This document shows positions 9,024 to 21,436 of a stretch of 64,000 nt of DNA, in pieces (position 1 is the first letter of the stretch; each line of letters begins with the position of its first letter). The position numbers and the translations under genes are program-made. The stretch is from Planctomycetota bacterium. GTDB taxonomy: Bacteria > Planctomycetota > UBA1135 > UBA2386. The DNA lies in the NCBI GenBank assembly GCA_046290465.1, contig JBKAGP010000001.1, forward strand, positions 5,344,001-5,408,000, given 5' to 3'. Below the pieces are notes generated by a model. It saw only the letters and a list, made by a program, of their open reading frames with translations, had not been told where the DNA came from and did not search any database.

Positions 9024-11165
9024 CTACGACATCCGCCAGGCGTTCCAGAACGACAGCAGGCGGTTCTGCAGCCAGCCACCGAGCAGCTGCACGCGCGCCG
9101 GCAGCAGCACCCGCGCGGTCAGGCCCGAGCCGCGCGCGTCGAGCGGCACCGAGTCGACCTCGAGCATCACGTGCAGGTACGGCCGGTCGGCCGCCAGCAG
9201 CTCGCCGCTGGTCCGGGTCACGTAGAGGTCGCCGCCGCCGAGCATCGTCAGGGCCGGCGGCACCTCGAAGCGCGACGCCGACGCGCGGATCTCGCGCACC
9301 ACCGCGCGCACCGAACGGGTCGGATCGCAGCTCCAGCGCACCTCGGCCTCGCTGTCGACCTCGAGCCGCGCGCGCGACACATCTTCTTCGGTCAGCACCA
9401 TGCGCAGGTAGCGGTGGCCGCTGTGCACCTGGAACAGCTCCTCGCCCTGTTGCACGAACCGTCCCGGCAGACGGTCGTGCAGCGGGCTCGCGATGGTGCC
9501 GTCGGCGTCGGCGCTGAGGCTCAGCGAGTACTGCCGCGCCTCGAGCTCCTTGACGCTGGCGGTCAGGTACGAGATGCGCGCCTGGTGGATCGCCGCCTGG
9601 GTCGGATCGTCGAGCTCGATCGCGTCGAGGCCTTCGCGTTCGGCGTCGAGCTCGCCGACCAGGCGCTGGCGCCGCATCTCGAGTTCGGGGTTGTGCAACA
9701 CCGCCAGCTGGTCGCCGGCTTCGACGACGTCGCCGTTGTGCACCTCGAGCTGCTGCACGAAGCCGCCGGTCGGTGCGCGCACCGACTGCCGTTGCTGCGG
9801 GTCGAGCACACCCGGCGCGACGATGCTCCACGAGATCGGCACCATGCCGCCGAGCAGCGGCAGTAGCGTCAGCGTCGCCAGCGCGACCAGCCGCGCGCGG
9901 GTGCGGTAGTCGGCGGTGGCCTTGCCGTTCCACAGGTGGATGGTCAGCGCCAGCACCGGCTTCGCGATCAGCGCCCACGCGAACACCACGCCGAGGAACA
10001 TGCCGGCCGCCGGCCACTGGGTCATCATCAAGCCGGTCAGCAAGAACGCGAGGGTGACGCGGTAGACGAACGCGGCGGGGCCGTAGATGCCGTAGAGCAG
10101 CCGTTCGGACGCTGCGTAGCCGTCGGGTGCGCGCGCCTTGCCGAGCGCCACGCGGTTGGCCCAGCCGTTGAGGAACGACTGCGCGCGCTGCTGCAGGTTG
10201 AACACGCCGACCAGGTCGCTGAACAGGAAGTAGCCGTCGTACTTCATCAGCGGGTTGACGTTGAACAGGATCGTCACGACGCTCGCCAACGCGATCACGT
10301 TGAAGGCCAGGTCGTGCACGAAGCCCTCGGTCGTGCCGGCCCAGACCAAGGCCGCGATCGCCGCGACGAAGGTCTCGAAGTACATGCCGCCGAGCGCGAC
10401 GACCGCGCGCTGCCGGGCGCCGGGCAGCTTCCACGAGGCGCCGGCGTCGACGTACGCGCACGGCGTCATCATGATCATCTGCACGCCCATCTCCGGCACC
10501 GACGCGCCGAACCGCTTGGCGGCGTAGGCGTGGCCGAACTCGTGCAGCACCTTCAGGCCGATCAGCGCGAGCCACAGCACCGGCAGGTTGGCGAGGGCCA
10601 GCAGGTTGCCGGTCTCGGCGAACATCTCGTCGAACCGGCCGAGGCACTTCCAGCCGACCAGCCCGAGCAGCGACAGCCACAGCAGCAGGCCGGGCCAGCC
10701 GAACAGCCAGCCGGTGTAGCGCAGCGTGCGATCGAGGAACGCGTCCGGGTTGCCGACCGGGATGCGGTGGCTCATCAGCATGCGGTACCACGGCCCGCTG
10801 CCGCGCGCCTGCTTCTCCAGCATGCGCTGGTAGGTCTGGTCGCCGCCGCTGATCGGCAGGTGCAGCAGGCCGATGCCGTGCAGCCACAGCACGAACTTGT
10901 AGAAGCCCTGGCGATCGTCGTCGTCGTCGTCGAGCACGTCGTCGCGGACCAGCTGCGCGTAGCACTCCCCGAGCGTGCGGTGGCGGACGATCGCGGTCAG
11001 CACGCGGTAGTCGGCGCCCCGGAACGCGTGGTTCTGGAAGCTGACCGGGTCGTGCACGACGTAGCGCACGCCGCCGCGGGTCTGCTGGCGCGTGAAGTGC
11101 AGGTCGCTGCGCAGGCCGACCCGGAGCGGGCCCAGCACGCGTTCGGTTCTGCTGGTGTCCGTCAT
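9024..11165 (-). CDS. PqqD/RRE-like domain + M50 (site-2) metallopeptidase + HlyD-type membrane fusion domain fusion
   Basis: HEFGH (10530-10544), NVNPLMKYDG, several TM helices, lipoyl-like VRAPTGGFVQQLEVHNGDVVEAGDQL and a coiled coil. ATG is 2 bp after the upstream stop. Confidence 0.88.
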   Translation of the reverse strand: MTDTSRTERVLGPLRVGLRSDLHFTRQQTRGGVRYVVHDPVSFQNHAFRGADYRVLTAIVRHRTLGECYAQLVRDDVLDDDDDDRQGFYKFVLWLHGIGLLHLPISGGDQTYQRMLEKQARGSGPWYRMLMSHRIPVGNPDAFLDRTLRYTGWLFGWPGLLLWLSLLGLVGWKCLGRFDEMFAETGNLLALANLPVLWLALIGLKVLHEFGHAYAAKRFGASVPEMGVQMIMMTPCAYVDAGASWKLPGARQRAVVALGGMYFETFVAAIAALVWAGTTEGFVHDLAFNVIALASVVTILFNVNPLMKYDGYFLFSDLVGVFNLQQRAQSFLNGWANRVALGKARAPDGYAASERLLYGIYGPAAFVYRVTLAFLLTGLMMTQWPAAGMFLGVVFAWALIAKPVLALTIHLWNGKATADYRTRARLVALATLTLLPLLGGMVPISWSIVAPGVLDPQQRQSVRAPTGGFVQQLEVHNGDVVEAGDQLAVLHNPELEMRRQRLVGELDAEREGLDAIELDDPTQAAIHQARISYLTASVKELEARQYSLSLSADADGTIASPLHDRLPGRFVQQGEELFQVHSGHRYLRMVLTEEDVSRARLEVDSEAEVRWSCDPTRSVRAVVREIRASASRFEVPPALTMLGGGDLYVTRTSGELLAADRPYLHVMLEVDSVPLDARGSGLTARVLLPARVQLLGGWLQNRLLSFWNAWRMS

Positions 11166-11167
11166 CG

Positions 11168-20462: not shown

Positions 20463-21436
20463 CGCCTGGCCCTCCGTCGCTGCAGCTCCGGCAGCGCCGA
20501 GCCGAGGCTGCGCGACAGCGGCGCCAGCGCGCTCTCGGCGCACGGTTCGCTCAGCGGTCGGCCCTGCAGCTGGTTGCAGGCCTTGCGCAGGGCGACGTCA
20601 CGGTGTTCGCGCACCGGTCGCAGCGACTGGATACGCAGGTTGCGGTCCAAGGCCCAGCGCAGCGCGTGGCGTTCGATGTCGCGGGTGCCCTCGGTCCAGG
20701 CGACGCAGCCGAGGAACGTGTTGCCGCTGTCGTAGGCGTACAGCACCCTGGTCTGCAGCGTCTGGTGCACGCCGCCGCGATCGAGTTCGACCGGCGCGGT
20801 GCGGCTGGTGAAGCGGGCCGCGGCCGGGAACAGGTCGAAGCCGGTGGCCCGGTCGTGCAGCTTCTCGATGTCGTCGCGCCAGACGGTGTCGAGCACCGCC
20901 AGCGTCTTGGCGGCCGAGCGCAGGGTCGTGCGTTCGAGCGCGCCGAGGTCGGCCTTGCGCGGCTCGCCGCGGTGGCGGGCCAGCAGCTTGACGAGGTCCT
21001 GGAAGTCGGCGCTGGTGAGGTCGTCCGCGAACCGGCCGCGCTCGAGCGACTTGATGTTGCGGTTGCGGCCGCGCAGGTAGCGGAAGCCGACGATCCGGCG
21101 GTCGAGCGTGACGTGCCAGGCGACCTCGGTCAGGCCCCAGTCGGCCTCCTCGGTGCGGCGGTAGACCAGGCCGACCGGGCGGCGGCCGCGGAACGCGACC
21201 AGCAGCGTGTGCTCGCCGAGTTCGTCGAAGTGCACCTTGAACGGCAGCAGCCGCTCGATGCGCGCGCGCGCCTCGAGGCCGACGTCGCGCTCGATGCAGC
21301 GGTAGGCGTCGGCCTCGGGGAACGCGCGGAACACGATGCGTTGCATCTGCTCGCGCTCGCGCTTGCTCTGGGCGGGCAGCGCGGTCGCGGTCGCCACCAG
21401 CGCGGCCGTGGCGGCGGCCGCGAGCGTGCGGGCCAT
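20459..21436 (-). CDS. secreted protein with two tandem FMN_bind/RnfG-like domains lacking a flavinylation motif
   Basis: Signal peptide LPA|Q; internal duplication FRAFPEADAY / FDLFPAAARF. Fold assignment is by eye and tentative. Confidence 0.55.
   Translation of the reverse strand: MARTLAAAATAALVATATALPAQSKREREQMQRIVFRAFPEADAYRCIERDVGLEARARIERLLPFKVHFDELGEHTLLVAFRGRRPVGLVYRRTEEADWGLTEVAWHVTLDRRIVGFRYLRGRNRNIKSLERGRFADDLTSADFQDLVKLLARHRGEPRKADLGALERTTLRSAAKTLAVLDTVWRDDIEKLHDRATGFDLFPAAARFTSRTAPVELDRGGVHQTLQTRVLYAYDSGNTFLGCVAWTEGTRDIERHALRWALDRNLRIQSLRPVREHRDVALRKACNQLQGRPLSEPCAESALAPLSRSLGSALPELQRRRARR

Follow-up and report, generated by a model that had tools for sequence, protein, structure and literature searches.

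A conserved putative export module of planctomycetes whose RRE–site-2 protease–adaptor fusion is predicted to bind the LEPRxLL leader of an RTX protein

Related systems

The closest described system is the locus reported by Kamneva, Poudel and Ward in 2015 (PMC4452313), in which a secondary SecA_DEAD protein is encoded with a Peptidase_M50-HlyD fusion, a GAF-HlyD protein and a HlyD protein. It holds no ABC transporter, TolC is adjacent only sometimes, and the M50 protein has been proposed as an inner-membrane pore. Among the SecA2-type hosts that the article names is the cultured Methylobacterium extorquens AM1 (META1p2399-2402). The words PilZ, PqqD, leader, adhesin, RTX and cadherin do not occur in the main text of that article (the domain drawings in its supplements could show PilZ or PqqD), which therefore names no cargo, RRE or leader.

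Leader removal is known from peptide maturation. The RRE-S2P fusion MpaP of the daptide family NF041824 removes leaders (10.1101/2023.03.08.531785), and the M50 protease EpeP (EpeP/YydH) has been suggested to combine cleavage with export (PMC10885120); in this type of protein an RRE stands ahead of an intramembrane zinc protease, which takes off an N-terminal leader. In PCAT/AMS systems (C39 + ABC) a single membrane protein recognises and cleaves the leader and carries out export (PMC10885120), which serves here as an analogy of working. In type I cargo, RTX repeats precede a C-terminal signal, and a folding ratchet is used (PMC6891781).

Some of the largest proteins of bacteria carry a LEPRxLL tag. 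Cag_663 and Cag_665 of Chlorobium chlorochromatii are LEPRxLL giants described as having no known transport signals (10.64898/2026.03.19.712371); their points of likeness to the cargo discussed below are an N-terminal LEPRxLL, export and a TolC neighbour. That article, in whose text the term M50 does not occur, assigns them to a Sap-like route that runs C-terminus first, unlike the proposal made here. In the literature searched, which covered a minority of subscription papers, no paper was found that links an RRE, an M50-MFP protein and the LEPRxLL leader, nor any functional test of the module.

Organization and conservation of the locus

The window, that is, the whole stretch of 64,000 nucleotides analysed, lies in a planctomycete genome assembled as one closed contig (94% complete). 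Seven minus-strand genes were all confirmed in it, with the coding-type base composition of a GC3 of 0.94–0.97. Their features are as follows.

20459..21436, minus: exported protein of 325 aa with an FMN_bind-like fold (Atlas neighbours), local accessory
17754..20462, minus: hybrid sensor kinase with two TM segments, HAMP, HisKA, HATPase and two REC domains (domain matches), local accessory
14377..17739, minus: cargo of 1120 aa, with leader, RTX block, about six PKD-type repeats, low-complexity spacer, C-terminal amphipathic helix and basic tail
17644..17691, minus: LEPRxLL-type leader motif, cargo residues 17–32 (profile and conserved residues)
17137..17583, minus: RTX nonapeptide block of six repeats, cargo residues ~53–201, directly behind the leader (PF00353)
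14380..14454, minus: C-terminal amphipathic/hydrophobic helix and basic tail, candidate retention anchor
13443..14297, minus: stand-alone periplasmic adaptor MFP, 284 aa (TIGR01730, 115.6 bits, cut-off 94.9)
13051..13434, minus: degenerate PilZ-domain protein, 127 aa (PF07238 in homologues)
11168..13036, minus: tandem-GAF, TM and MFP protein, 622 aa (AF2 model, GAF structure matches)
9024..11165, minus: fusion of RRE, site-2 (M50) zinc protease and MFP, 713 aa (AF2 model, structure matches)
10857..11126, minus: RRE (PqqD-like) domain, residues 14–103 of the M50-MFP fusion (Atlas PqqD clusters 0.94–0.95, and structure)
10530..10544, minus: HExxH zinc motif H208, E209, H212, with D310 as third ligand

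An earlier sequence-only reading had listed seven co-directional genes with the same gaps. The last five (14, 79, 8, 14 and 2 bp) agree, and the first depends on the start codon of the kinase: it is −4 with TTG 20462, to which the N-termini of two relatives point, and 8 with ATG 20450. Its domain calls (MFP, GAF-MFP, M50-MFP, hybrid kinase, RTX/PKD) were all matched in Pfam or NCBIfam, and its PilZ-like gene is borne out by PF07238 matches in 7 of 22 homologues, although the window copy itself has no match. The RRE domain, the second GAF domain and the C-terminal amphipathic helix of the cargo had gone unlisted. No sigma-70 promoter was found at the locus, and terminator-like sites are at chance level (4, against 4.5 ± 2.6 expected).

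The four machine genes (MFP, PilZ, GAF-MFP and M50-MFP) occur together in 13/13 relative loci, with the cargo gene upstream of them in 11 of the 13, so that the set proves to be conserved together. Gene order thus supports a conserved five-gene set, which appears to form an uncharacterised export module. The kinase is found upstream of the cargo in five close relatives and in none of the eight more distant clade loci in which the 5′ neighbour of the cargo can be seen, which marks it, judging by synteny, as a local extra. The 325-aa gene precedes the kinase in two relatives; its product has FMN-binding-family clusters as Atlas neighbours (features 0.89–0.90, structure TM 0.72) and no Pfam or NCBIfam match. 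The window PilZ protein carries neither RxxxR nor D/NxSxxG. Since the kinase is local and the PilZ protein is without c-di-GMP motifs, the regulation through kinase and PilZ inputs that had been proposed is unsupported; of the secretion machine put forward with it, the export module stands, with a core that is the Kamneva locus (PMC4452313).

That locus corresponds to the MFP/M50 clusters beside SecA_DEAD proteins, noted bioinformatically and without a demonstrated mechanism, that the earlier reading had mentioned. Both loci encode the same three adaptor proteins (an M50+HlyD fusion, a GAF+HlyD protein and a stand-alone HlyD) and no ABC transporter, whereas the present one has an added PilZ gene, and the Kamneva-type secondary SecA_DEAD is absent from both locus and genome. 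The M50-MFP/GAF-MFP/MFP core and the idea of M50 as a pore are thus already known from that article; new here are the RRE, the link to the leader, the polarity of the RTX block and a PilZ clade lacking SecA2.

The cargo and its leader

The leader residues E23 and R25 are invariant in 19/19 leaders. The LEPR-XLL family NF012209 scores 15.7 bits on the whole cargo and 19.7 bits in the genome search (cut-off 17 bits), and the cargo is both the only RTX protein and the only leader-profile match in the genome. As had been read from the sequence, it carries RTX (and PKD) repeats and no Sec signal: no hydrophobic signal segment was found in it, and the leader is without a hydrophobic core. Of 15 cargos, 12 have at least three RTX nonapeptides no more than 250 residues from the leader and three have no RTX match at all, while the final 250 residues are free of nonapeptides in every one of the 15; in all seven further intact leader loci RTX begins within 50 residues of the leader. 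By sequence, the position of the RTX block is the mirror image of that in classical type I cargo, where it stands before an uncleaved C-terminal signal. The C-terminal helix contains the most hydrophobic 11-mer of the cargo, and 16 clade cargos terminate in a comparable helix with a W, by a pattern fitted after inspection of those same cargos.

Leader and module travel together. Among 41 genomes (the own genome and 40 relatives) the leader is present in 9/9 module genomes, four of which supplied no sequence to the leader profile, and in 1/32 others, where the lone copy is a pseudogene decayed by stops and frameshifts. Across 251 sampled genomes of the phylum, 72 hold the module; NF012209 matches 36 of these, the other 36 giving no match, and 3 of the 179 remaining genomes (p 5e-20, an overstatement, since kin are not independent). 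Four genomes hold 9–17 leader matches per one module, as would be expected if the leader is a signal. Planc_extracel (PF07595), tried as a marker, was rejected as too insensitive, with five matches in the 251 genomes, unrelated to the module.

The M50-MFP fusion as a leader-directed protease

The AF2 model of the M50-MFP fusion (pLDDT 89.6, pTM 0.75) resembles 6JX3_B over residues 14–103, RseP (9J83) over 192–386 and EmrA over 444–691. Its N-terminal part has the RRE fold of three strands and three helices, and superposes on a lasso B1-leader complex with Z 9.8 and rmsd 2.5 (85/85 aligned) and on TbiB1 with Z 9.7. Foldseek with the full fusion gave adaptors only, among the matches listed; the best 60 matches of an alignment search against solved structures comprised adaptors and one site-2 protease (3B4R, E 4e-4), and no RRE. 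Both zinc-ligand motifs, HExxH and NxxxxxDG, are present in 119/119 aligned homologues, H208, E209, H212, N302, N304 and D310 being invariant, and the catalytic residues together with D240, N323 and K205 are common to SecA2-type and PilZ-type modules. The GAF-MFP model (pLDDT 89) has one TM segment, residues 361–379, and each of its two GAF halves superposes on known GAF domains (best Z 15.5, rmsd 3.3, 149 aligned).

A complex model of the fusion with the cargo leader scores 0.67, against 0.01 for the best of three controls; the score mark is reached by 116/157 solved pairs and 2/215 mismatched pairs, although the job, with custom alignments and a zinc ion, falls outside that calibration and none of its controls is a cousin peptide. 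At least 65% of the contacts are shared between runs, with partner pLDDT of at least 56. The modelled leader lies along the RRE and into the zinc site, with an interface of RRE residues 44–49 and F91, plus H208, E209, H212, N302 and 308–310. Leader residues 17–22 are predicted to pair with RRE strand 3 and downstream residues to reach the zinc site, the invariant E23 and R25 meeting conserved residues of the protease, in pairings with N323 and with A241/F313. Because the RRE-leader complexes 6JX3 and 5V1U are already solved, the score may partly reflect likeness to them. RRE and protease are thus predicted by the model to bind, and likely to cut, the LEPRxLL leader. The suggestion that the fusion forms the inner-membrane gate, an idea already in print (PMC4452313), needs correcting to include a protease: by its RRE fold, invariant motifs and complex model, the M50 part appears to act as a leader-directed protease and to be more than a gate.

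In its order of domains the fusion is like MpaP and EpeP/YydH, and the daptide leader motif ELExMEAP resembles the ExLEPR core of the cargo leader. Unlike MpaP, it continues into a periplasmic adaptor, and its partner is a 1120-aa protein instead of a short modified peptide; the daptide protease NF041824 is its best NCBIfam match, at 109 bits below the cut-off of 300. Unlike PCAT, the module has no C39-ABC fusion and no nucleotide-binding domain, a zinc site-2 protease and an RRE taking the place of the cysteine protease C39.

Outer-membrane channel and energy source

The claim that ABC transporter, TolC and SecA are missing is true of the window, where OEP, ABC_membrane and SecA_DEAD gave no match and the 29 other proteins are likewise free of them, but not of the genome. 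The genome searches that had been suggested returned 11 TolC-family genes, one ABC-HlyD-TolC operon (C1:2478449-2483054) and a single SecA_DEAD over cut-off, which is the canonical SecA. The three MFPs of the locus and these TolC genes in trans are a candidate pairing of the type I kind. MFP-type adaptors, a TolC family channel, a cargo with RTX and Ig-like repeats and no Sec signal recall classical type I systems (HlyB-HlyD-TolC), from which the module differs in having no ABC with its adaptors, three distinct adaptors and a conserved N-terminal motif. The outer-membrane channel is probably supplied by a TolC gene from another locus. For 8 of 11 module-linked TolCs the best match in the genome is an orphan TolC (C1:706671-708347), which is present in all nine module genomes; it is not module-specific, as 38/41 genomes hold it.

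In the module tree (FastTree, midpoint root; three duplicate loci and loci with fewer than 480 aligned positions left out) the PilZ-containing clade has a modest support of 0.797, many loci being cut by contig ends. The PilZ gene marks a SecA2-less clade: SecA2 is near none of its 41 loci, whereas outside it a SecA paralogue stands at 20/49 module loci, and no PilZ match was found near SecA2-type modules. Searched with a profile built from 20 SecA2 proteins of modules, the genome yielded only canonical SecA. A full-length canonical SecA directly precedes a distant module in L045 and L047, which are closely related to each other and represent one event. At least two SecA matches occur in 53/72 module genomes and in 10/179 others, but these counts include split matches of single genes, so the locus-level assignments were relied on instead. 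Near the 41 clade loci no ATPase family recurs, five scattered Walker-A ORFs being unrelated, and the residues that distinguish PilZ-type from SecA2-type fusions give no clear hint of a change in energy coupling. With SecA2 missing, the first push would most likely come from the housekeeping SecA, an assignment that we make tentatively by our own estimate; a ratchet with the proton-motive force alone is a plausible if less favoured source, and an unlinked ATPase a rather unlikely one.

Proposed mechanism and alternative explanations

The current model proposes that the leader-tagged RTX/PKD cargo is bound, and likely cut, by the RRE-protease and then exported N-terminus first through the three adaptors and a borrowed TolC, which we consider probable. 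The RRE would bind the leader, with cleavage near residues 27–30, and the membrane domain of the fusion, together with the GAF-MFP anchors, would form or frame the inner-membrane passage. The chain would then thread the adaptors and the in-trans TolC with its N-terminus leading, ratcheted outward by Ca2+-driven folding of the RTX block and then of the PKD repeats, and the C-terminal helix, emerging last, would tether the adhesin to the cell. Whether this amounts to a separate Gram-negative secretion class is more doubtful: in such a class an RRE and a site-2 protease would read and cut LEPRxLL and gate a three-adaptor/TolC tunnel, N-terminus first, with a PilZ branch that has no ATPase of its own and is driven by calcium folding and the membrane gradient. 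If the proposed route holds, a device of peptide-antibiotic maturation (RRE + site-2 protease) has been co-opted as secretion receptor and signal peptidase, and the branch without a SecA paralogue would mean that export can do without this ATPase. At this locus the question is experimentally small, involving a domain of 110 residues, a motif of 16, four catalytic residues and a cargo of modest size (1120 residues), and a short portable N-terminal export tag would help to secrete large proteins.

It could also be argued that export occurs in two steps, the RRE-protease being a targeting factor and signal peptidase for SecYEG and canonical SecA, while the adaptors funnel periplasmic cargo to TolC. 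The lack of a pump in the locus, the SecA paralogue of related modules and the canonical SecA that precedes a distant module in L045 and L047 all speak for it, as does the report that symbiosis proteins, including two LEPRxLL giants, stay in the periplasm when the partner is absent (10.64898/2026.03.19.712371). However, the leader has no hydrophobic core, the module SecA2 has no wing/scaffold part, which has been linked to contact with SecYEG (PMC4452313), and the fusion of adaptors with inner-membrane proteins is the arrangement of one-step pumps; we hold this route to be unlikely, though worth keeping in view. That the ABC operon in trans exports the cargo, with the module only trimming or chaperoning it, is very improbable, even though that operon holds ABC, HlyD and TolC and the genome has no RTX protein besides the cargo. 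Its ABC was found in five of nine module genomes, but not in G009 (89% complete), G013 (92%), G037 (90%) and G024 (69%), and it was found in five genomes without the module; this ABC scores far below the HlyB, PrtD and LssB cut-offs, the RTX block is at the wrong end, and three dedicated adaptors would be redundant.

Two further explanations give the protease another substrate or site. The protease might be a c-di-GMP/GAF-controlled release switch that cuts the C-terminal membrane helix of the cargo, much as LapG frees LapA, instead of a leader peptidase. The cutting of membrane helices by site-2 proteases, the conservation of this helix, the intact c-di-GMP motifs in 7 distant PilZ homologues of the 22 and the six GGDEF matches in the genome are in its favour, but neither the RRE nor the invariant leader would have a role in it, the complex model, with the leader as partner, places that leader in the zinc site, the window PilZ is degenerate, and SecA2-type modules share the protease residues with no PilZ nearby; we regard it as improbable. 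Least probable, and hardly to be expected, is a module that processes and exports a small RiPP-like peptide, with the large neighbour incidental. The likeness to the daptide protease and the module genomes without an NF012209 match would suit it, yet the adjacency of the cargo and the co-occurrence of leader and module among the 41 genomes speak against it, and no peptide-modifying family recurs among the ORFs of at least 120 aa at the 41 clade loci. A C39-ABC exporter encoded on the opposite strand lies 7 kb from one clade locus (L055), which counts against the proposed mechanism.

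The locus and its neighbourhood

The locus is a real, conserved, putative export module. It lies in a genome assembled as one contig of 6.59 Mb (94% complete), where the window spans C1:5344001-5408000, and its seven minus-strand genes at 9024-21436 have a GC3 of 0.94-0.97 each. The intergenic gaps are as the sequence-only reading gave them, the first being -4 bp with a TTG start at 20462 that is backed by the N-termini of two relatives. Pfam and NCBIfam bear out its domain calls: periplasmic adaptor (MFP), GAF plus MFP, M50 plus MFP, hybrid kinase and RTX/PKD protein. The features concerned are:

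28230-31364 (+): ECF-type sigma factor extended by a long C-terminal region that carries carboxypeptidase-regulatory domains
21516-22286 (-): arginyl/aminoacyl-tRNA protein transferase (ATE_N, ATE_C), 79 bp upstream of the operon on the same strand
20459-21436 (-): kinase partner with an FMN_bind-like fold
17754-20462 (-): hybrid sensor kinase
14377-17739 (-): cargo, 1120 aa
9024-11165 (-): fusion of RRE (RiPP recognition element), M50 site-2 protease and MFP
7154-8878 (-): exported-looking protein directly 3' of the operon, no Pfam or NCBIfam match; 13 genome paralogues with a common C-terminal part
4502-7111 (-): second exported-looking protein on that side, likewise without a match

The last two were not found adjoining the module in relatives. 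The cytoplasmic part of GAF-MFP consists of two GAF domains and is not an ATPase, and a search across the window found no ABC, TolC or SecA gene, as had been claimed. For the small PilZ-like gene, PilZ matches 7 of 22 homologues. The window copy lacks both c-di-GMP motifs, which are kept in 7 distant homologues. Five close relatives have the kinase 5' of the cargo, as do 0 of 8 more distant clade loci with that neighbour visible. Because the kinase is local and the motifs are missing, the proposed control through kinase or c-di-GMP is unsupported for this copy.

The fusion protein and the cargo leader

Structural models support the prediction that the fusion is a leader reader joined to a protease. 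In the atlas, residues 1-110 group with PqqD clusters (0.94-0.95), and the AlphaFold2 model (pLDDT 89.6, pTM 0.75) gives the N-terminal domain three strands, then three helices. By VIA-align, residues 14-103 match a lasso-peptide B1 protein with bound leader (6JX3_B; Z 9.8, rmsd 2.5, 85/85) and TbiB1 (Z 9.7), residues 192-386 match RseP (Z 9.6, rmsd 4.0, 164 aligned) and residues 444-691 match EmrA (Z 14.4). H208, E209, H212, N302, N304 and D310 are invariant in 119/119 fusion homologues (23-87% identity), and because the catalytic residues are held so strictly, the M50 domain is probably not kept merely as a pore. The top NCBIfam match, under its cut-off, is the daptide protease, described as an RRE-S2P fusion that takes off leaders (10.1101/2023.03.08.531785); for the M50 protease EpeP, cleavage as well as export of its peptide has been proposed (PMC10885120).

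The cargo N-terminus has a charged stretch and a LEPRxLL-type motif; E23 and R25 are invariant in 19 aligned leaders, 17 of which carry L or F at position 17. Fusion residues 1-420 folded with zinc and cargo residues 7-42 gave a complex score of 0.67 (best control 0.01). The mark is reached by 116/157 solved and 2/215 mismatched pairs, a calibration set outside which both the custom alignments and the zinc of this job fall. As RRE-leader complexes have already been solved, the pass may owe something to resemblance to them. Runs share at least 65% of contacts, with a partner pLDDT of at least 56. In the model, cargo residues 17-22 pair with RRE strand 44-49 and F91, E23 contacts N323/Q325/Q326, and R25 contacts A241/F313, adjoining D240 (kept in 118/119); the interface reaches H208, E209, H212, N302 and 308-310. 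The model supports the predicted binding of the cargo leader by the RRE and protease. The scissile bond, which the model does not place, would lie near residues 27-30.

Co-occurrence of leader and module

Among the genome itself and 40 relatives, the full-length fusion occurs in 9/41, three more having weak partial matches only. The leader profile, built with sequences from 5 of those 9 genomes (the other 4 gave none), matches 9/9 against 1/32 of the rest. That sole outside copy (G001:C163:5965-9001) is a leader-RTX pseudogene with stops and frameshifts, adjoining a tRNA-like sequence; the module was not found in its genome (94% complete), which fits decay following loss of the machine. Across 251 phylum genomes, the fusion is found in 72 and the short leader model NF012209 in 39, that is, in 36/72 fusion genomes against 3/179 others, the genomes being kin rather than independent; half of the module genomes (36/72) thus give no match. 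Four phylum genomes have 9-17 leader matches each and a single module. G011 (L005, L008, L015, L098, L106) has three modules and six leader proteins, and G010 two modules and three leader proteins. Bordering a divergent module type (L087, L088, L089) is a gene read divergently that has the variant leader MEERIVLD at its start.

A PilZ clade without SecA2

The MFP/M50 clusters beside SecA_DEAD proteins mentioned in the sequence-only reading are indeed in print: PMC4452313 describes M50-HlyD, GAF-HlyD and HlyD next to a secondary SecA_DEAD protein in a setting that lacks an ABC transporter, and hypothesizes that SecA is the ATPase and M50 the pore. Its main text contains no PilZ, PqqD, leader, adhesin, RTX or cadherin, and our literature search found no later functional study of the module and no RRE-leader link. 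Unlike that 2015 locus, the present one has no secondary SecA, whether beside it or elsewhere in the genome. PilZ is nearby in 31 of 90 fusion loci, with the secondary SecA paralogue (SecA2) within 7 kb in 0/31, against 20/59 non-PilZ loci. In the tree, the PilZ loci group in one clade (41 tips; support 0.797, midpoint root), which has no SecA2 neighbour and 3 TolC neighbours, contig ends cutting many loci; no conserved ATPase gene recurs across these 41. An ABC lies within 9 kb in 3 (one soluble-looking, one LolD-like, one C39-ABC). A single SecA is present in 14 genomes whose detected modules all belong to this clade (G000, 002, 009, 010, 011, 013, 023, 037, 128, 210, 213, 220, 260, 283; G024, 69% complete and without SecA, excluded). 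SecA2 was presumably lost in the clade. In a distant three-adaptor module, a full-length canonical SecA lies directly 5' and co-directional (L045:1771-5655, L047:1898-5782).

Route of export

Probably the best explanation is a leader-reading protease module that exports the cargo: the fusion RRE and protease would bind and likely cut the leader, and the cargo would then leave N-terminus first through the adaptors and TolC. Such a module would work like a peptidase-coupled exporter and is not a type I system. Type I cargo has RTX repeats ahead of an uncleaved C-terminal signal, Ca2+-driven folding ratcheting export (PMC6891781), whereas here six RTX nonapeptides lie near the N-terminus, at residues 53-201 of 1120. 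At least 3 nonapeptides occur within 250 residues of the leader motif in 12/15 leader-bearing clade cargos, and even a single one in the last 250 residues in 0/15, two of this set extending past their locus and some possibly frameshifted; in 7/7 further intact leader loci, RTX begins within 50 residues. N-terminus-first export with a C-terminal tether would be the simplest reading. The boldest reading, that it represents an ATPase-free, protease-gated, head-first secretion class, is rather unlikely.

The genome has one SecA and no orphan SecA2; searching it with a profile made from 20 SecA2 proteins linked to modules gives the canonical SecA only. A two-step route, in which the cargo reaches the periplasm via SecYEG and the adaptors pass it to TolC, is unlikely. 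TolC itself is available outside the locus, as 11 TolC-family genes; one, at C1:706671-708347, has no pump adjoining, is the top match for 8/11 module-linked TolCs of other genomes, and occurs in 38/41 genomes, all 9 module genomes among them. The cargo C-terminus is an amphipathic helix with a basic tail, a pattern, fitted post hoc, found in 9/15 clade cargos; that the protease cuts this helix as a release switch, instead of the leader, is improbable. Export in trans by an ABC is very improbable: the one ABC-HlyD-TolC operon (C1:2478449-2483054) is present, but its ABC is under every type I family cut-off, and it is patchy, in 5/9 module and 5 module-less genomes. The cargo is the sole RTX protein of the genome. 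That a small peptide is the real substrate, its large neighbour being incidental, is the most remote of these readings.

A C39-peptidase ABC exporter lies 7 kb from a PilZ-type module, on the opposite strand (L055:14844-17096 (-)). Another locus (L005:1688-2713) encodes a minimal cargo in which only 308 residues follow the leader, RTX is not matched and the C-terminal helix is retained. Either it would make a handy small substrate, or the assembly has a deletion here.
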